The notes under the pieces: model-generated
What the model saw: only the letters and a program-made list of their open reading frames with translations
Told to the model about the DNA's origin: nothing
Database searches by the model: none
Position numbers and translations under genes: made by a program
NCBI GenBank assembly: GCA_051883835.1
Contig: JBJEUL010000176.1
Coordinates: 1-59,209, forward strand
Direction of reading: 5' to 3'
Length of the DNA: 59,209 bases
DNA from: Aristaeellaceae bacterium
GTDB lineage: Bacteria; Bacillota; Clostridia; Christensenellales; Aristaeellaceae
Shown: positions 3,941 through 57,537 of the stretch, piece by piece
How the letters are laid out: every line of letters starts with the position of its first letter
Position numbering within the stretch: position 1 is the first letter of the stretch

Positions 3941-4999
3941 ATGTACAAGACCCGTGTCGTCCCCGTGGGGACGCTGAAGCTGGGCGGCGACAACCCCGTG
4001 TGGGTGCAGTCCATGACCAACACCGACACCGCCGATGTCCCTGCAACGCTGAATCAAATCCGCGCACTGGCGGAAGCCGGATGCGATATCGTGCGCGTGA
4101 GCGTATACAACGAGGCCTGCGCCCGTGCCGTGCGCCAGCTGGTGGACGCATCCCCCGTACCGCTGGTGGCGGACATCCACTTTGACCATCGGCTGGCCCT
4201 GCTGGCCATGGAAAACGGCATTCACAAGCTGCGCATCAACCCCGGCAACATTGGCGGGGAGAAGAACGTGCAGGCCGTGGCGGACTGCGCCAAGGCCCAT
4301 CATGTACCCATCCGCATCGGGGTGAACAGCGGCTCCATTGAGCGGGATATCCTCGCCCGGGACGGCGGCCCCACGGCCCGGGGCATGGTGGACAGCGCGC
4401 TGAATCACGCCCGGATGCTGGAAAAGGCAGGCTTTGGCGATATCGTGCTGTCCATGAAGGCCAGCGATGTGCGCCTGACCATCGAAGCCTATGAGCTGGC
4501 GGCGCAAAGCTGCGACTATCCCCTGCATGTGGGCGTGACGGAAGCCGGACTGCCGGGGCAGGGCACCATCAAGAGCGCGATTGGCATTGGTGCGCTGCTG
4601 GCGCGGGGGATTGGCAGCACCATCCGCGTGAGCCTGACGGGCTCGCCCATTCCCGAGGGCAAGGCCGCGTGGGATATCCTGCGCGCGCTGAACCTGCGCA
4701 CACAGGGGGTGCAGCTGGTATCCTGCCCGACCTGCGGGCGCACGGCCATTGACGTGGCGGGGATTGCGGCGCGGGTGGAAGCGGAGCTGGCGGATGTGAA
4801 GGTGCCGCTGAAGGTGGCCGTGATGGGGTGCGTGGTGAACGGCCCCGGCGAGGCGCGGGAAGCGGACATCGGCATTGCTGGCGGCAAGGGCTGCGGTGCC
4901 TTGTTCCGCAAGGGCCAGGAGCCAGTGAAGGTAGAAGGCGACCTTGCCGAAATCCTCATCCGCGAGGCCCGCAAAATCGCCGCCTCCAAAACCGAGTAA
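3941..4999 (+). CDS. ispG: 4-hydroxy-3-methylbut-2-enyl diphosphate synthase (flavodoxin)
   Basis: MYKTRVVPVGTLKLGGDNPVWVQSMTNTDT start, Fe-S ligands in VSCPTCGRT and GCVVNGPGE. GGAGG-type RBS before ATG 3941; the longer ORF from 3542 overlaps rseP and is not used. Confidence 0.93.
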   Translation: MYKTRVVPVGTLKLGGDNPVWVQSMTNTDTADVPATLNQIRALAEAGCDIVRVSVYNEACARAVRQLVDASPVPLVADIHFDHRLALLAMENGIHKLRINPGNIGGEKNVQAVADCAKAHHVPIRIGVNSGSIERDILARDGGPTARGMVDSALNHARMLEKAGFGDIVLSMKASDVRLTIEAYELAAQSCDYPLHVGVTEAGLPGQGTIKSAIGIGALLARGIGSTIRVSLTGSPIPEGKAAWDILRALNLRTQGVQLVSCPTCGRTAIDVAGIAARVEAELADVKVPLKVAVMGCVVNGPGEAREADIGIAGGKGCGALFRKGQEPVKVEGDLAEILIREARKIAASKTE

Positions 5000-5207
5000 C
5001 TCCAAGGGACCGCGCCAGCGGAAAGGGGTCAAGGGGCGATGCCCCTTGTGGGGTGCAGGGGTGAAACCCCTGCGCAGGTCTGGGCGGCAGCCCAGCGCAA
5101 CACGTTAGACCGGCAAAAAGGAAAAGAGAAAAACGCGAGTTTCCCAGCAGACGGCGCAGCCCACCCGCGTCGGAAACGGCAGGTTCCGCCATCTGCAAAG
5201 GAACGCC
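5000..5207 (+). repeat. Multi-hairpin intergenic repeat, copy A (full length; module 2 diverged)
   Basis: Starts 1 nt after the ispG TAA. Carries the CGCGCCAGCG core, hairpins CAAGGGGC-GAT-GCCCCTTG, GCAGGGGT-GAA-ACCCCTGC and CTGGGC-GGCA-GCCCAG, a purine-rich linker, the GTTTCC...GGAAAC module, and the GTTCC...GGAAC hairpin. Confidence 0.9.
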
Positions 5208-8700: not shown

Positions 8701-10181
8701 TGAGCAAGGACGGCTTCGACATTCCCTTCGAGGTGTTCCTGGGCTTTGAGGGCGACAAGGTGCCCGATATCGACCTGAACTTCTCCGGCGAGTACCAAAA
8801 CCGCGCCCACCACTATGTGGAGGAGCTCTTCGGCCATGACCATGTGTTCCGCGCAGGCACCATCACGGGCCTTGCGGACAAGACGGCCTATGGCTATGTC
8901 GCGAAGTACCTGGAGGAGCGGGGCATTCAGACGGGCAACACGGAAAAGGAGCGGCTGGCCGCAGGCTGCGTGGGCGTGAAAAAGACCACCGGCCAGCATC
9001 CCGGCGGCATGGTGGTGGTGCCCAAGGAATACGAAATCTACCAGTTCACCGCCGTGCAGCATCCTGCGGACGATTTGGAGAGCGACTTTACCACCACGCA
9101 TTTCGACTTCAACTCCATGCACGACATTCTGGTCAAGCTGGACTGTCTGGGGCATGATGACCCCACGGTCATTCATATGCTGGAGGAGCTGACGGGCATC
9201 CCGCCCACGGAGGTGCCGCTGGATGACCCGGCAGTGCGCAGCCTGTTCCACTCCCCGGAGGCTCTGGGCGTTACCTCCGAGCAAATCGACTGCTCCACGG
9301 GCACCTTCGGCATCCCGGAATTCGGCACGGCCTTTGTGCGCGGCATGCTGGACGATACCACGCCTTCCACCATGGAGGAGCTGATTCGCATCTCCGGCCT
9401 GTCCCACGGCACGGACGTGTGGCTGGGCAATGCGCAGGATTTGATTCGCTCCGGCACAGCCGTGCTGCGGGAATGCGTCTGCTGCCGTGACGATATCATG
9501 AACTACCTCATCGACCGGGGCGTGGCCCCCAAGCTGGCCTTCACCACCATGGAGTCGGTGCGCAAGGGCAAGGGCCTCAAGCCTGAGATGGAAAAGGCCA
9601 TGATAGACAACAACGTGCCGGAATGGTTCATTGATTCCTGCAAGAAAATCAAGTACATGTTCCCCAAGGGCCATGCTGTGGCCTATGTGACCAGCGCACT
9701 GCGCATTGCGTGGTTCAAGGTGCATCATCCGCTGGCCTATTACGCGGCGTACTTCACCGTGCGCGGCGATGGTTTCGATGCCTGCACCATGCTCATTGAC
9801 CCGCAGACCATCAAGCAGAAAATCCGCGATATCAAGAACGATCCCAAGGCCACTGCCAAGGATCAAACCGCCGTCACCAGTCTGGAGCTGGTGCTGGAAA
9901 TGAACATGCGCGGCTTCCGCTTCCTGCCCTGCGACCTGTACAAGAGCCACGTCAGCCGCTTCCTGATTGAGGACGGCGCGCTGCGCTGCCCCTTCACGAG
10001 CCTGGGCGGCCTGGGCGAAAGCGCGGCCATCGCCATTGTGCGCGAGCGCGACAAGGCCCCCTTCCTGTCCATTGAGGACATGAAGGAGCGCACCAAAATA
10101 TCCAGTGCCGTCATCGAGCTGCTCCGCGCCCACGGCAGTCTGGAGGGTCTGAGCGAAACCAGCCAGGTAAGCTTCTTCTAA
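5757..10181 (+). CDS. polC: DNA polymerase III PolC-type alpha subunit
   Basis: PHP motif ELHMHTNMS, inserted DEDD exonuclease (VLDFESTGL, HNAAFD, HRAVHDA), zinc finger CTHC/CPLC, polymerase core. GGAG RBS before ATG 5757. Confidence 0.95.
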   Translation: MSYEDLLSQIYAALPHLKGQLSSPRVVYVWAQGKVYITFDSAVLVEEAAFLKMESILRKVFPQKPLALRVVSPGLKEDFLDNISRYKQVLTDFLKRNYPASVSWMEQIDWRCDGERITLTFPDDFSLQYMARQNITGRLAQAVKDIFSADVKVELTVAGNQEARLEEMRRERDKALQAAVTLQELASDHAAPPKEKKERKPTAPRPKKEPEKAPEKKPEPIFPQMTDTALGKPILGRGIADHPVEMKELASDSGLVVVQGDIFKLETKELKGGEMLLVTFAITDYTSSILCKTFLRFRKGGGFGRRKDDEAPLPPITEEERRAVMEKVEQIKLGMNVKVRGECLYDSFARELSISVRDMVPMERIEREDTAEEKRIELHMHTNMSNMDAMTPAGDLIKRAIKWGHPAVAITDHGVVQSFPAAFNAVKKQPIKLIPGCEGYLIDDKDVVKDADDRPLDDTIIVLDFESTGLNTAVDRVIEIGAVKLVGGTVTDSLSLLVNPQRPLSPKITEITGITDMMLADKPTAEQAIPQLMAFMDGHPIAAHNAAFDAALLQAELRRLGITYHAPVLDTLTLARKLYPDMKTHKLGSVCKQLGVSLKNAHRAVHDATATALCLAKMFQQIKEEKGYTKLSDLNLLQGGAIGESYHVILLVKTQAGLVNLNRLVSIGHLDYFRRRPHMPKKIIQQYREGLIIGSACEAGELFRAVLDNEPWEKLKEIASWYDYLEIQPIGNNAFLVREGRVPDEEGLRELNRTIVRLGEELGKPVVATGDVHFLDPHNAINRAIIQAGMGYEDCDQQPPLYFKTTNEMLEEFAYLGPKKCHEVVIDNPRMIADQVEKLQLFPIHPKGEDTFQPLWEDAADNIQNMTWNTARELYGDPLPEIVVKRLEKELKSIIGYGFATLYNIAQKLVKKSNDDGYLVGSRGSVGSSLVARMCGITEVNALPPHYRCTHCRKGFFDVDKSLYQVGVDLPDKDCPLCGKPLSKDGFDIPFEVFLGFEGDKVPDIDLNFSGEYQNRAHHYVEELFGHDHVFRAGTITGLADKTAYGYVAKYLEERGIQTGNTEKERLAAGCVGVKKTTGQHPGGMVVVPKEYEIYQFTAVQHPADDLESDFTTTHFDFNSMHDILVKLDCLGHDDPTVIHMLEELTGIPPTEVPLDDPAVRSLFHSPEALGVTSEQIDCSTGTFGIPEFGTAFVRGMLDDTTPSTMEELIRISGLSHGTDVWLGNAQDLIRSGTAVLRECVCCRDDIMNYLIDRGVAPKLAFTTMESVRKGKGLKPEMEKAMIDNNVPEWFIDSCKKIKYMFPKGHAVAYVTSALRIAWFKVHHPLAYYAAYFTVRGDGFDACTMLIDPQTIKQKIRDIKNDPKATAKDQTAVTSLELVLEMNMRGFRFLPCDLYKSHVSRFLIEDGALRCPFTSLGGLGESAAIAIVRERDKAPFLSIEDMKERTKISSAVIELLRAHGSLEGLSETSQVSFF

Positions 10182-10366
10182 AGGGATCGCGCCAGCGTCG
10201 AAGGGGTCAAGGGGCGATGCCCCTTGTGGGGTGCAGGGGTAAAACCCCTGCGCAGGTCTGGGCGGCAGCCCAGCGCAACATATTCGAACAGCCAAAAGGA
10301 ATCGGAAAAAATCAGAGTTTCCAAGCAGACGACGCAGTTCGTTCGCGCCGGAAACGGCAGGTTCCG
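10181..10366 (+). repeat. Multi-hairpin intergenic repeat, copy B (modules 1-2)
   Basis: Begins at the polC TAA. Same three hairpins (hairpin 2 loop AAA) and module 2 with a TCGTT (G:T wobble) variant. Confidence 0.9.
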
Positions 10367-10443
10367 CAGCCTGCACCGCAGAGCCTAATTAACGCACTGG
10401 AGCTTCCATCAACAAGGGAAGGCCAGCGTTCAGGAGGTATATC

Positions 10444-12017: not shown

Positions 12018-12362
12018 ATGGATCGGGTGGTCATCCGGTGGCAGGCGATGGCGGTGGCCTGTGTGCTGATTGTGGCCCTGTTTGCGGCAGGCCTGTGGAG
12101 CAACGCCCGGGATTTGCGCACCGCCCAGGAGCGGGAAACCGCCATGCAGGAAGAGCTCACGCACCTGCAGGAAATCGAGCTGGAGCTGTCTGCAGAGCTG
12201 GAAAAGGTCGGCACAGCGAGCTATATCGAGGCCCGCGCCCGGGAGGACTATGCGTTCCTGAAGCCGGGAGAGCTGCGCTTTGAGGTCATCAACCCCAAGG
12301 TGCTGGAGGGCTACACCCGGGAAGAGCTGCAAATTCTCATGGACGAAATAACCATGTACTGA
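12018..12362 (+). CDS. divIC: Septum formation initiator (DivIC/FtsB family)
   Basis: Single N-terminal TM helix, then a coiled coil (LRTAQERETAMQEELTHLQEIELELSAELEKV) and IEARAREDYAFLKPGE. GGGAG RBS before ATG 12018. Confidence 0.75.
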   Translation: MDRVVIRWQAMAVACVLIVALFAAGLWSNARDLRTAQERETAMQEELTHLQEIELELSAELEKVGTASYIEARAREDYAFLKPGELRFEVINPKVLEGYTREELQILMDEITMY

Positions 12363-12364
12363 TG

Positions 12365-12396
12365 GGGGAGCCTGCGTGCGCGGGTTCCTCTTTTTC
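12365..12396 (+). terminator. Intrinsic terminator after divIC
   Basis: Stem GGGGAGCC/GGGTTCCTC (with wobbles), followed by TTTTT (12391-12395). Confidence 0.45.
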
Positions 12397-12440
12397 TCAA
12401 TCGGATACAAAGGGACAAGGCGGAAGGGAGGCATGCTGTC

Positions 12441-13355
12441 ATGATAGCGGCAGTCATCGGGATCGGGTCCAATTCCGTGCGAATGCTGGTGGCACAGGTG
12501 GAGGGCAACCATGCACGGCGGCTGTGGCGGGACAGGGAAGGCACGCGGCTGTTTGCAGGGCTGGACAAGGACGGGTGCTTGCAGCAGGAAGCCATGGCCA
12601 CGACGGTGGCGGCGGTCAGGCGCATGGCGGAGGATGCCCGGGCCAGGGGCGCGCAGGAGGTGCGGCTCTTTGCCACCAGCGCGACCCGGGACGCGGCCAA
12701 TCAGGAAGCCTTTGCAGCCATGCTGCGCCAGCAGGCCGGTGTCGAGTTGGAGGTTTGCTCCGGGGAGAAGGAAGCCGAGCTGTCCTTCCTGGGGGCCACG
12801 GATGGGGATTACTGCGGCGTGATTGACATCGGCGGCGGCTCCACCGAGGTGGTGGTGGGGCAGGGCAAGCAGCTGCGGTGCGCCTTCTCCTGCCAGATGG
12901 GCGCGGTGCGGCTGCATCGGCGGCAAGCCATCGACTCCCACAGCGATCTGCCGCTGGTGGAACAGCTTGCCACGGATATTTTGACGGACAAGCTCCGGGA
13001 GCATCCCACGCTGACCCTGCCGGAGAAGTGGATTGGCACGGGCGGCACCTTCACCACGCTGGCAGCGATGGTCAAGGGCATTCGCTGGACGGATCGCACC
13101 TACATGCACGGCACGGTGCTGACCCTGGCGCAGGTGGAGCAGCAGGCATGGCTGCTCTCCGACATGCCCATGGCACAGCGGCTCAAGCACCCGGGCCTGC
13201 AGCCCCATCGGGCGGATATCGTGGTGCATGGCATCTGCATCCTGCTGGCGGTCATGAAGCGGCTGGGCATTGAACGCATCACCGTAAGCGAATACGGCAA
13301 TCTGGACGGCTATATGAAGGAGCTTTACGGCCTGAAGGGCGAAATCGCGCCCTGA
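12441..13355 (+). CDS. ppx: Ppx/GppA-family phosphatase (exopolyphosphatase-like)
   Basis: ASKHA-fold motifs AAVIGIGSNSVRMLVA and GVIDIGGGSTEVVVG. Confidence 0.85.
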   Translation: MIAAVIGIGSNSVRMLVAQVEGNHARRLWRDREGTRLFAGLDKDGCLQQEAMATTVAAVRRMAEDARARGAQEVRLFATSATRDAANQEAFAAMLRQQAGVELEVCSGEKEAELSFLGATDGDYCGVIDIGGGSTEVVVGQGKQLRCAFSCQMGAVRLHRRQAIDSHSDLPLVEQLATDILTDKLREHPTLTLPEKWIGTGGTFTTLAAMVKGIRWTDRTYMHGTVLTLAQVEQQAWLLSDMPMAQRLKHPGLQPHRADIVVHGICILLAVMKRLGIERITVSEYGNLDGYMKELYGLKGEIAP

Positions 13356-14978: not shown

Positions 14979-15187
14979 CTCCAAGGGAACGCGCCAGCGT
15001 AAAAAGGGTCAAGGGGCGATGCCCCTTGTGGGGTGCAGGGGCAAGGCCCCTGCGCAGGTCTGGGCGGCAGCCCAGCGCAACACGTTCCATTTACTCAAAG
15101 GGAAAAGAAGCAACGTGAGTTTCCAGGCAGACGACGCAGTTCGTCCGCGTAGGAAACGGCAGGTTCCGAAGCCCGCCAGGGAACGCC
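14979..15187 (+). repeat. Multi-hairpin intergenic repeat, copy C (full length)
   Basis: Begins 2 nt after the stop of the PrsA-like gene. Hairpin 2 carries the C-G closing-pair variant GCAGGGGC-AAG-GCCCCTGC. Confidence 0.9.
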
Positions 15188-15226
15188 CTCATCCCCCGCT
15201 GCGCCCCGTTCCATTCCCGACAAACC

Positions 15227-18724: not shown

Positions 18725-18912
18725 CCCCAGGGACCGCGCCAGCGGAAAGGGGTCAAGGGGCGATGCCCCTTGTGGGGTGCAGGGGTGAAGCCCCTGCGCA
18801 GGTCTGGGCGGCAGCCCAGCGCAACACGTTCGCATTGTAAAACGGAACCGCAAAAAACGTGAGTTTCCAAGCAGACGACGCAGTTCGTCCGCGCTGGAAA
18901 CGGCAGGTTCCG
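18725..18912 (+). repeat. Multi-hairpin intergenic repeat, copy D (modules 1-2)
   Basis: Begins about 6 nt after the SCIFF-maturase TGA. Hairpin 2 has the T:G variant (GCAGGGGT-GAA-GCCCCTGC). Confidence 0.9.
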
Positions 18913-18972
18913 CAGCCTCTATCGGTGTGCCCTCGCCCCAGTCGTATCTTTGCAGATTCTATAGAAAAAAGC

Positions 18973-24600: not shown

Positions 24601-24610
24601 CCCCCCCCCA

Positions 24611-24816
24611 ACGGACCGCGCCAGCGGAAAGGGGTCAAGGGGCGATGCCCCTTGTGGGGTGCAGGGGTGAAACCCCTGCGCAGGTCTGGGCGGCAGCCCA
24701 GCGCAACACGCCCGAACAGCAAAAAAGGAAAAGAGAAAACGTGAGTTTCCAAGCAGACAACGCAGTTCGTCCGCGTAGGAAACGGCAGGTTCCGCATACC
24801 TGCATGAGGAACGACC
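24611..24816 (+). repeat. Multi-hairpin intergenic repeat, copy E (full length)
   Basis: Follows the rfbD TAA after a C9 run. All four hairpins are present. Module 2 has GACAA (one mismatch). Confidence 0.9.
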
Positions 24817-24837
24817 TCATCCGACTTCGCTTCGCCC

Positions 24838-24872
24838 GGCCTACTCCCTGCATAGGGAGCAGGCCGCTTTTT
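24838..24872 (+). terminator. Intrinsic terminator downstream of repeat E
   Basis: GGCCTaCTCCCT-GCAT-AGGGAGcAGGCC followed by GCTTTTT. Confidence 0.6.
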
Positions 24873-24877
24873 ATGCC

Positions 24878-25275
24878 TGTGGATAACCTGCGCACCTGAA
24901 AGTTTTGACGGCAACAGGGCAATTTCCTGCATTTGCAGGAGCAGCATGGCCCGAAAGGGCCTGTTCGCCACCGATTCGGACAATGACAGGACAATCCAAT
25001 CATCATTTTTGTGCATAAATATGCAATTCAACAATTGGGGATATATCCAAAGAACGCCAAAAGTCCCGTGTTTGGCTGGGGATAAAATGCCCCGGAGCAG
25101 GGGAAAGCATGTGGAGGAAAGCTGTGGAAAACCTGTGGATAATGTGGATAACTCAGAAAGAATGGCGTAAATCAAGGATTTTCCGTTCGCAAGGCTGTGG
25201 ATAACGCTGTGCATTGTGTGGATGGATAACGCACTTACCCACAGGCCGAAAATGAAGGAGGCTTCATTTTCCACA
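24878..25275. promoter_or_regulatory. DnaA-box cluster in an AT-richer intergenic island
   Basis: Perfect TGTGGATAA (complement of TTATCCACA) at 24878, 25134, 25143 and 25196. One-mismatch boxes at 25077, 25123 and, inverted, 25267. Two-mismatch boxes at 25110 and 25217. AT-rich stretch at 25005-25050. Confidence 0.75.
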
Positions 25276-25372
25276 GCGGGGCTATGCATGGAAAAACGGT
25301 ATGCCAGATTTTCCATGCCGATGTTCTTGCAGGGTCGGACAGCGCATACCCTGTCGGCAGGAGGTGCGTGCC

Positions 25373-26137
25373 ATGGACGGAAGCAGGGCGCAACGGTGGC
25401 TGGCGGTGGCGGTGGTCGTCACGCTGGCGGTGGGGACGGTGGTGGCGGTGCTGGCAGCCCGGCGGTCAGCAACACAAGAGACATCACCCACACCTGCGCA
25501 GGCAACAACGGCCCCGGAGCCGCTGCCACTGACCGGCTGGGTCATTCTGGTGGACCCGGGTCACGGCGGCTATGACGGCGGTGCCAGAGCCCGCAGCAGC
25601 GGCGTGTGGGAGAAGCATATCAACCTCTCTGTCGCACTGGAGGTCGAAAAAAACCTCGTCGCCCGGGGTGCATCCGTGGTGATGACCCGACGGACAGACG
25701 AGGATTTGTGCGAGGAGGAACGCCCCGCCGCCCTGACGAAAAAACGGCAGGACATGCAAAACCGCGTGGCCATTGCCGTCAACAGCCACGCGGATATGGT
25801 GCTATCCATTCATATGAACGAGTACCGGGACAGCCGTCAATCCGGCCCGCAGGTGTTCTATCGCCAGGGCGCGGACGCGGGACGGCTGCTGGCAGGCTGC
25901 TTGCAGGCTGCGCTCATCACCGGCCTGCAGCCCATCCGGGAGCGTCAGGCCATGGCGGGTGACTACTTCATCCTGCAATTGGAGGTGCCCTCCGCCCTGG
26001 TGGAGTGCGGGTTCATCTCCAACCCGGCGGAGGAAAAGCTGCTGCTCACGTCCGAGTATCAGGCGCGTCTGGCACAGGCCATTGCCGATGGGGTGGAGGA
26101 ATATGCCGCCCTGTGCCCCAAGGCCGACACCCTTTAG
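25373..26137 (+). CDS. cwlD: N-acetylmuramoyl-L-alanine amidase, CwlD-like (Amidase_3)
   Basis: N-terminal TM anchor, VILVDPGHGGYDGGA, LSIHMNEY, ALVECGFISNPAEEKLL. AGGAGG 8 nt before ATG 25373. Confidence 0.78.
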   Translation: MDGSRAQRWLAVAVVVTLAVGTVVAVLAARRSATQETSPTPAQATTAPEPLPLTGWVILVDPGHGGYDGGARARSSGVWEKHINLSVALEVEKNLVARGASVVMTRRTDEDLCEEERPAALTKKRQDMQNRVAIAVNSHADMVLSIHMNEYRDSRQSGPQVFYRQGADAGRLLAGCLQAALITGLQPIRERQAMAGDYFILQLEVPSALVECGFISNPAEEKLLLTSEYQARLAQAIADGVEEYAALCPKADTL

Positions 26138-31735: not shown

Positions 31736-31736
31736 C

Positions 31737-31845
31737 CTCCAAGGAACCGCGCCAGCGTCGAAGGGGTCAAGGGGCGATGCCCCTTGTTCGGTAGCAGGGG
31801 TGAAACCCCTGCGCAGGGCTGGGCGGCAGCCCAGCGCAACATGTT
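31737..31845 (+). repeat. Multi-hairpin intergenic repeat, copy F (module 1 only, truncated)
   Basis: Begins 2 nt after the dut TAA and ends after CCCAGCGCAAC. Inter-hairpin spacer variant GTTCGGTAGC, similar to the GCTCGGTAGC variant of copy H. Confidence 0.85.
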
Positions 31846-40857: not shown

Positions 40858-41071
40858 ACCCCACCAAGGGAACGCGCCAGCGGAGAAGGGTCAAGGGGCG
40901 ATGCCCCTTGTGGGGTGCAGGGGTAAAACCCCTGCGCAGGTCTGGGCGGCAGCCCAGCGCAACATGTTGAAACAACCCAAAAGGAAAAGGAAAAATCAGA
41001 GTTTCCAAGCAGACGACGCAGTTCGTCCGCGTCGGAAACGGCAGGTTCCGGGGAACTGCAAGAGGAACGCC
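40858..41071 (+). repeat. Multi-hairpin intergenic repeat, copy G (full length)
   Basis: Begins immediately after the ttcA TAG. All four hairpins are present. Forms a tail-to-tail pair with copy H. Confidence 0.9.
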
Positions 41072-41203
41072 CCATCAACACACACGGCCCTGCAGAATGT
41101 ATGCTGTCCTGCAGGGCCGTCGTATGAACAAGAAAGCTGCTGCCCGGTTGAGGGACAGCGGCTTGTGTGCATTGGGGGAACGATACGCTCCTTTGGGAGA
41201 ATT

Positions 41204-41399
41204 CGGAACATGCCGTTTCCAGCTCGAACGAACTGCGTCGTCTGCTTGGAAACTCACGCTTTTTCCTTTCTTTTTGGATAAGTGGGACGTGTTGCGCTGG
41301 GCTGCCGCCCAGACCTGCGCAGGGGTTTCACCCCTGCTACCGAGCAAGGGGCATCGCCCCTTGACCCCTTTCCGCTGGCGCGTTCCCTTGGTGGGGTCG
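41204..41399 (-). repeat. Multi-hairpin intergenic repeat, copy H (only minus-strand copy; modules 1-2)
   Basis: The reverse complement aligns end to end with the other copies (CCAAGGGAACGCGCCAGCGGAAAGGGGTCAAGGGGCGATGCCCCTTG...GAGTTTCCAAGCAGACGACGCAGTTCGTTCG). Confidence 0.9.
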
Positions 41400-44127: not shown

Positions 44128-44337
44128 CTCCAAGGGACCGCGCCAGCGGAAAGGGGTCAAGGGGCGATGCCCCTTGTGGGGTGCAGGGGTGAAGCCCCTG
44201 CGCAGGTCTGGGCGGCAGCCCAGCGCAACACGCCCCACTTATCCAAAAGGAAAGGAAAAAGCGTGAGTTTCCAAGCAGACGACGCAGTTCGTCCGCGCTG
44301 GAAACGGCAGGTTCCGGGGACTGAAAGAGGAACGACC
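44128..44337 (+). repeat. Multi-hairpin intergenic repeat, copy I (full length)
   Basis: Begins 1 nt after the secF TAA. The first 31 nt from the stop codon (TAACTCCAAGGGACCGCGCCAGCGGAAAGGGG) are identical to copy A. Hairpin 2 has the T:G variant. Confidence 0.9.
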
Positions 44338-44507
44338 TCATCCGACCTCGCAGCCCTCGGCCCCGAAGACTTTCCGCCCCCTCTCGCTGGGCTTCCTGCC
44401 CAACATGCGGTGCCGTGAAATACCACTTCCTTGACAAACAGAGGAGGGGCCTTGATGTTCAAGGTTCCTCCTTTTCGATTCAGCCATGAAGGATGGAGGC
44501 AAGACCC

Positions 44508-57437: not shown

Positions 57438-57537
57438 ACTCCAAGCAATCGCGCCAGCGTCGAAGGGGTCAAGGGGCGATGCCCCTTGTGGGGTGCAGGG
57501 GCAACGCCCCTGCGCAGGTCTGGGCGGCAGCCCAGCG
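57438..57537 (+). repeat. Multi-hairpin intergenic repeat, copy J (module 1 only, truncated)
   Basis: Begins about 5 nt after the mutS2 TAA. Hairpin 2 has the C-G variant GCAGGGGC-AAC-GCCCCTGC. Ends at CCCAGCG. Confidence 0.85.

Follow-up and report, generated by a model that had tools for sequence, protein, structure and literature searches.

A putative non-origin DnaA-box cluster upstream of cwlD in uncultured gut Clostridia

The window, meaning the whole 59,209 bp stretch of DNA analysed, comes from a contig with a GC content of 62%. On its left side the genes run in the order uppS-cdsA-dxr-rseP-polC and, further on, rfbA-rfbC-rfbB-rfbD; these are followed by a cluster of DnaA boxes and then by a cwlD-like amidase gene, downstream of which lie a GGDEF gene, rluD, lspA and a DUF5665 gene on the minus strand, and then ksgA, dut, an opp operon, secDF, recJ, relA and mutS2. 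The amidase scored 198 bits against TIGR02883 (spore_cwlD), below the cutoff of 221.6, and rfbD scored 220 bits against TIGR01214, for which the cutoff is 224. No homologue of dnaA, dnaN, gyrB or rpmH was detected by tblastn in the 59,209 bp, in agreement with a first-pass annotation made from the sequence, which had noted the absence of dnaA, dnaN and rpmH. Most genes are on the plus strand (16 of 18 on the left flank and 23 of 27 on the right). Both flanks of the cluster have a positive bulk GC skew, whilst the skew at third codon positions is around zero on each of them for plus and minus strand genes alike, even though 87% of genes lie on the same strand; the contig shows no sign of a mutational skew linked to replication. 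Hence the bulk skew reports the coding strand only, and GC skew, being uninformative with regard to an origin, was dropped from the analysis.

The cluster had been placed between the rfbD terminator and cwlD, which is correct save that the rfbD stop codon and the terminator are separated by around 230 bp, corresponding to one copy of a high-copy repeat that lies outside the cluster. This GC-rich, multi-hairpin repeat, approximately 195 nt long, is found in at least ten copies in the 59 kb at 85-91% identity (4995-5205, 10181-10375, 14981-15194, 18725-18914, 24601-24830, 31736-31841, 40859-41076, 41201-41396, which is inverted, 44130-44362 and 57450-57537). Nearly every copy starts within a few bases of the stop codon of a plus strand gene, in the same orientation and in a 3' UTR position. 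No Rfam family corresponds to the repeat, and of the related loci only a contig of the same species (L001) has it; were the density in the window typical, the genome would contain hundreds of copies.

The features of the intergenic region are listed in Table 1. The terminator, the position of which is kept in L002-L005 (alignment A1), forms the left boundary of the element. The conserved block that contains no box could be the start of a short open reading frame or a binding site. A candidate frame spans 24947-25171; its ATGGCC start and TCGGACAATGACAGG block are kept in L002-L004, where the TGA of CATGAATAAA ends it after 22 codons, whilst in the window this stop has been lost, leaving a frame of 74 codons, and the conservation could equally reflect a DNA-level motif. 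The AT-rich stretch reported in the first-pass annotation is real, having a duplex dG of -59.3 against a window mean of -78.1 (sd 4.5), which puts its stability about 4 sd below the mean. The lower GC around the cluster is only local; AT-rich tracts of the ATGCAT/ATGAATA type accompany the cluster in most relatives. Immediately upstream of cwlD, CATACCCT resembles the B. subtilis consensus sequences for sigma-E/K and is a putative -10 motif of this type. The set of GCATAnnnT, a gap of 6-12 nt, GGAGGTG and ATG is kept across loci, including those of a lineage without boxes.

Table 1. Features identified between the rfbD operon and the cwlD-like gene (positions in the window).
Feature	Position	Strand	Details
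rfbD-operon intrinsic terminator	24838-24874	+	GC hairpin (stem 24847-24863) and T-run
Distal perfect DnaA box	24878-24886	-	TGTGGATAA on + strand; abuts rfbD-operon terminator
Conserved non-box block	24947-24992	+	CATGGCC...CCACC..TTCGGACAATGACAGG; A1, direct reading
AT-rich island	24991-25050	.	70% AT; least stable 50-60 bp duplex of whole contig
One-mismatch box	25010		TGTGCATAA; inside AT-rich island
One-mismatch DnaA box	25077-25085	-	TGGGGATAA; mismatch scan
Distal box array	25110-25151	-	25110 (2 mismatches), 25123 (1 mismatch), 25134 and 25143 (perfect)
Spacer between arrays	25152-25195	.	Conserved A-tract (A/T)AAATCAAGG (A1)
Proximal box array	25196-25225	-	25196 (perfect), 25207 (degenerate, 3 mismatches), 25217 (2 mismatches)
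Two inverted one-mismatch boxes	25235-25275	+	25235 (TTACCCACA) and 25267 (TTTTCCACA)
Palindrome with T-run	25248-25271		10-bp stem, flanked by the inverted boxes at 25235 and 25267; MFE fold, z = -3.2
cwlD promoter-proximal motifs	25345-25375	+	CATACCCT 25345-25352, RBS GGAGGTG 25360-25366, ATG 25373
cwlD-like N-acetylmuramoyl-L-alanine amidase gene	25373-26137	+	PF01520; TIGR02883 best NCBIfam match

The window has exactly four perfect DnaA boxes (TGTGGATAA, equivalent to TTATCCACA on the minus strand), all of them in the cluster and at the positions given in the first-pass annotation (24878, 25134, 25143 and 25196). In 100 dinucleotide-preserving shuffles of the window the mean number of perfect boxes was 0.17, and no shuffle reached four. 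Seventeen boxes with at most one mismatch occur in the whole window, against 5.5 expected, and nine of these fall within 24878-25275. The scan recovered the one-mismatch boxes previously reported at 25077, 25123 and 25267 (inverted) and added those at 25010 and 25235 (also inverted), whilst the two-mismatch boxes likewise reported earlier are present by direct reading (TGTGGAGGA at 25110 and TGTGGATGG at 25217); the tally of the cluster is four perfect, five one-mismatch and two two-mismatch boxes, and none of the 100 shuffles matched the observed counts. This is a grouping of several consensus and near-consensus boxes in an intergenic region, as in the DnaA-box clusters (DBCs) of B. subtilis. 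The boxes of the distal array are spaced by 13, 11 and 9 bp, the last pair abutting, in a TGTGGAAAAccTGTGGATAATGTGGATAA arrangement that is kept in L002-L004, L007, L010, L013, L014 and L018; those of the proximal array are spaced by 11 and 10 bp, which is kept among relatives as TGTGGATAAcgcTGTGGAnnnTGTGGATGA. Box 25143 is 53 bp, or five helical turns, from box 25196. The CCTGTGGATAAC of the outlying box at 24878 occupies invariant columns in alignment A1, with a counterpart at -507 to -532 in L002-L005.

A CwlD protein scan of species-representative genomes yielded 57 loci, 35 of which belong to MAGs of uncultured Christensenellales-type bacteria, a part of them under the label Aristaeellaceae; the CwlD proteins of these are 48-79% identical, and the only exact match to the protein of the window was on a single 2.7 kb contig. 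Among sequencing runs, four metagenomes alone matched, with 6-8% of the sequence words, too few for coverage or RNA measurements. In 29 of these 35 loci, four to ten boxes with at most one mismatch are found within 900 bp upstream of cwlD, and beyond that distance boxes are nearly absent from up to 20 kb of the same loci. Over the 29 loci taken together, the 25.5 kb upstream of cwlD contain 185 boxes and the remaining 420 kb contain 65, such that boxes are enriched 47-fold ahead of the gene. The majority are co-oriented, the ratio of orientations relative to cwlD being 143:42 for all 185 boxes and 68:9 for the 77 perfect ones. The spacing between successive co-oriented boxes peaks at 9, 11-13, 20-21, 42-43, 53-54, 64 and 83-85 bp, all of them integral multiples of the helical repeat; the boxes are helically phased. 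The recurrent layout consists of two box triplets 53-55 bp apart, a spacing seen in 11 box pairs, with an AT-rich tract.

The arrangement of the rfb genes, the cluster and cwlD is present in five independent assemblies. Only the closest relatives have rfbD as the upstream neighbour, and the downstream neighbours vary repeatedly, although this comparison of neighbour families is qualitative only, as crude clustering of open reading frames over-splits them. As the pairing of the cluster with cwlD persists whilst the outer flanking genes change, the conserved unit is the cluster plus cwlD. No comparable boxes were found upstream of the outgroup amidase genes of Peptostreptococcaceae and Gastranaerophilales. 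On these comparisons the pairing is ancient and extends throughout an order of uncultured gut Clostridia; we found no papers linking DnaA boxes and cwlD. A nested lineage (L006, L008, L009 and L011) is without the boxes, having retained cwlD and its CATAnnnT and RBS motifs. Where the boxes once stood upstream of cwlD, L006 (9880-9930) and L011 (9880-9935) have ATTCCG(A/C)A octamers in tandem, with GC-rich palindromes of REP-like type ahead of them. A tandem repeat of around 70 bp, with about three copies and an extra partial one (...aaaggaacccaaaccccgcatcgcggctgagcgtagcaatagccgcgtca...), lies just upstream of the box cluster in L019 (approximately 9390-9660).

In B. subtilis, six DBCs outside oriC bind DnaA stably and jointly restrain initiation; of the neighbouring genes, sda goes up whilst dnaA, ywlC and yydA go down (PMC3245932). 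On the basis of its sequence features, which include those that define a DBC, the element in the window appears to have its closest known relative in this set. Both are intergenic groups of consensus TTATCCACA boxes in Firmicutes, set apart from the unwinding site and beside a potentially regulated gene, and one of the B. subtilis DBCs controls a gene linked to sporulation, sda; by analogy, the cluster described here would be expected to bind DnaA stably and to buffer initiation (PMC3245932). The Bacillus clusters differ in lying beside different genes in each species, mostly close to oriC, whereas the cluster of the window accompanies one gene, cwlD, in one orientation across the order, and has a strongly AT-rich tract next to it. 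This constancy of gene and orientation, unlike that of the Bacillus DBCs, points to a cis relationship with cwlD.

We consider it probable that this is a non-origin DBC coupled to cwlD, on which a DnaA oligomer would modulate cwlD, soak up DnaA, or both. Around ten boxes, in two phased arrays 53 bp apart and nearly all in one orientation, would provide a platform on one face of the helix, and ATP-DnaA would assemble cooperatively as an oligomer on the two phased triplets, 120-260 bp upstream of the putative sporulation-type promoter of cwlD itself. DnaA occupancy might then modulate transcription entering or starting at cwlD, with either sign, through an activation like that of sda or, in growing cells, by acting as an insulator or roadblock, and so tie the status of replication initiation to a gene of the spore cortex. 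A second, compatible consequence would be that a substantial amount of DnaA is retained on the array, at a distance from oriC, as happens at the B. subtilis DBCs and at datA of E. coli. The cwlD motif set is kept even in the absence of boxes, which argues that the array is a modulator rather than the promoter. The same retention of motifs in the four loci without boxes indicates that the putative cwlD promoter is independent of the array, which counts against this reading; so does the distance of 120-260 bp, which is far for a simple repressor, and no described DBC looks as much like an origin as this one, with its AT-rich island next to boxes that point at it.

It is unlikely, in our estimation, that the cluster is purely a DnaA sink or initiation-control element of the datA or DBC type with no role at cwlD, the linkage being historical and breakpoints rare in a short gap. 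Such an element would accord with the retention of promoter-proximal motifs by cwlD after loss of the boxes, with the distance of more than 120 bp between the array and the -10-like motif, and with the B. subtilis DBCs, which restrain initiation even after relocation (PMC3245932). Yet the neighbours of Bacillus DBCs differ between species (PMC3245932), whereas here there is one partner in one orientation despite rearrangements on both outer sides. A constant partner and orientation across an order are hard to explain without a link in cis, and they strain this explanation. The datA and DARS1/2 loci of E. coli are likewise chromosomal clusters of high-affinity boxes outside oriC, which change the pool of active DnaA: datA, with its boxes 2, 3 and 7 and the IBS, depends on IHF and stimulates hydrolysis of the ATP bound to DnaA, whilst DARS has a defined three-box core (boxes I-III) and releases ADP. 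However, neither architecture, nor an IHF site, was identified at the cluster of the window, the layout of which, two triplets 53 bp apart, is unlike both; the phylum and the regulators differ as well, and we know of no defined Firmicute equivalent.

A promoter repressed by DnaA could instead lie inside the array and drive a short transcript or leader, as in dnaA autoregulation. A promoter embedded in the spacer is possible, with a -35 hexamer, TGGATA, inside box 25143, followed after 17 bp by TAAATC/GAAAAT as the -10; the transcript would end at the palindrome or read into cwlD. The position of these candidate hexamers is conserved between the window and L002-L004, in which the palindrome has compensatory GAAG/CTTC to GCAG/CTGC changes (A1), and in L033 cwlD-pfk-dnaA is preceded by no cluster other than that upstream of cwlD, which would fit a former role in driving dnaA. 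Set against these observations, a sigma-70 promoter scan of the intergenic region gave no match above threshold, and the hairpin is AT-rich, weak and conserved within the family only; a search of Rfam gave nothing at the gathering threshold, and at E<1 only chance-level matches. We regard an internal promoter as distinctly improbable.

That the cluster is the chromosomal origin, or the DnaA-assembly half of one, unlinked from dnaA, is very unlikely, although a number of its properties would suit an origin. It is the densest DnaA-box array in any locus of the clade, denser than anything beside dnaA in this order, and its boxes are directed at the 60 bp where the duplex of the contig is least stable. 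In relatives, at least four unrelated gene contexts are seen for dnaA, which sometimes has no box at all; solitary dnaA genes (L066 and L067) have no more than one, so oriC does not lie at dnaA there. In one subclade alone (L026, L028, L033, L034 and L035) dnaA lies 2-4.5 kb downstream of cwlD, in the string cluster-cwlD-pfk-dnaA-DUF5711-cvpA, and in L019, L020, L022 and L031 the cluster sits at a -/+ divergence of genes. However, gene orientation does not switch at the site in the window, such that the 16 of 18 left-flank genes on the plus strand, polC included, would run head-on to replication over 25 kb, and among relatives the contexts of the cluster are +/+, -/- and -/+. Neither dnaA, dnaN nor marker genes are linked to it in the window; rpmH, rnpA, yidC, parAB, gyrB and dnaN are all missing within 10 kb in around 35 loci, and none of the classical genes to the left of origins lies beside the clusters, those at -/+ loci included. 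Furthermore, in the lineage without boxes the cluster has proved dispensable or separable.

The unwinding site provides a more direct comparison. A canonical BUS comprises tandem boxes, a spacer of 0-16 bp, three or more NAN trios and AT-rich DNA in the form of a DUE (PMC8287927). The window resembles this in its abutting tandem boxes and the AT-rich region near them, but no run of trios lies within 16 bp of any of its boxes; the weak (NAN)3 hits at 25010 and 25036, the only two, are not conserved in relatives, and consensus-like trios number at most two in any cwlD cluster against five in L065 and three in L070, which served as canonical controls. The CCACMGYACTAC junction between boxes and trios is absent from the window at up to one mismatch, and from all 66 other loci. 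As judged on this contig by the lack of an orientation switch, trios or CCACMGYACTAC, the cluster very probably lies outside the origin.

By contrast, an unwinding module of tandem boxes and GTA-CTA-CTA trios, with the CCACMGYACTAC junction exactly once in each, is found just upstream of dnaN at five loci (L065, 11428-11480; L068, 9925-9990; L069, 9928-9990; L070, 9920-9960; L071, 9924-9990), which come from related gut Clostridia with DnaN around 50% identical to the query and could not be assigned to the cwlD-cluster clade. In L065 and L070 it occupies the dnaA-dnaN spacer, reading TTTTCCACC-gTTTCCACC-GTA-CTA-CTA-CTA-CTA-CGA-CTA-CTT-aatata and TTATCCACA-ATATCCACA-GTA-CTA-CTT... respectively, whilst the other three are solitary dnaN-recF loci, each at a -/+ divergence. 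A strict scan for contiguous trios recovers L065 and L070 only, missing the interrupted trios of the solitary dnaN loci; the shared junction motif, which replaced it, ties these to the former pair. One MAG contributed both L067, where dnaA is bare, and L068, where dnaN has the module. In this group of gut Clostridia the predicted module stays with dnaN while dnaA moves. In L071, a second dense cluster (12268-12484; seven boxes, three of them perfect, in mixed orientation) directly follows recF, such that dnaN-recF is bracketed by box clusters. The first-pass annotation had ranked a cluster distant from dnaA above an origin unlinked from it, and that order stands: there is no orientation switch, trio run or junction, the module is found upstream of dnaN in related genomes, and the cluster is kept specifically with cwlD across the order.

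The origin-like features may nevertheless have a history. In L071, dnaN-recF is followed by a DUF5711-like gene and cvpA, the same pair as follows dnaA elsewhere, and hence there was probably an ancestral string dnaA-dnaN-recF...DUF5711-cvpA, broken differently in each lineage. The oriC1/incAB region of bipartite Firmicute origins, which lies upstream of dnaA and is associated with dnaA autoregulation, likewise combines an AT-rich tract with numerous co-oriented boxes in phase, and in L026, L028 and L033 the cluster is upstream of cwlD-pfk-dnaA; the cluster of the window differs in having neither dnaA nor dnaN within 25-34 kb, nor an unwinding module. Speculatively, the cwlD cluster may descend from the box-rich, oriC1/incAB-like half of an ancestral origin region, although the dnaA-linked arrangement, being confined to one subclade, does not set the polarity of this history. 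That the cluster arose by chance, or is what remains of a former origin region now decaying, and does nothing today is scarcely credible, for all that the proximity of dnaA in one subclade suggests descent from an origin region: perfect 9-mers are maintained, with their spacing and orientation, between species in which CwlD is only 48-79% identical, as would not happen in neutrally evolving DNA.

Returning to the DBC coupled to cwlD, DBCs as a kind are known, and the new element is the order-wide coupling of one to a sporulation gene. The strongest form of this idea, in which DnaA directly gates a late sporulation gene through an order-wide platform in spore-forming gut Clostridia whose dnaA, dnaN and box clusters have become dispersed, perhaps an orphaned oriC1/incAB half that has been reused, is tentative and, on present sequence comparisons, rather doubtful. 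DnaA is both the initiator of replication and a transcription factor, yet to our knowledge almost nothing is known of its sites elsewhere in the genome beyond a few model species. Methods that predict oriC from the position of dnaA or the density of boxes would mis-call these genomes, probably by choosing this cluster. Sda is a protein of the Bacillus lineage, and we know of no Sda checkpoint in Clostridia. The locus places a strongly constrained, putative DnaA platform beside a gene of the spore cortex, in an order that is mostly uncultured and little studied, and as such offers a concrete link, open to experiment, between the status of replication and sporulation in Clostridia. A connection between DnaA and maturation of the spore cortex would be new, if shown; and were direct gating true, it would represent a replication-to-spore-cortex checkpoint of a previously undescribed kind.
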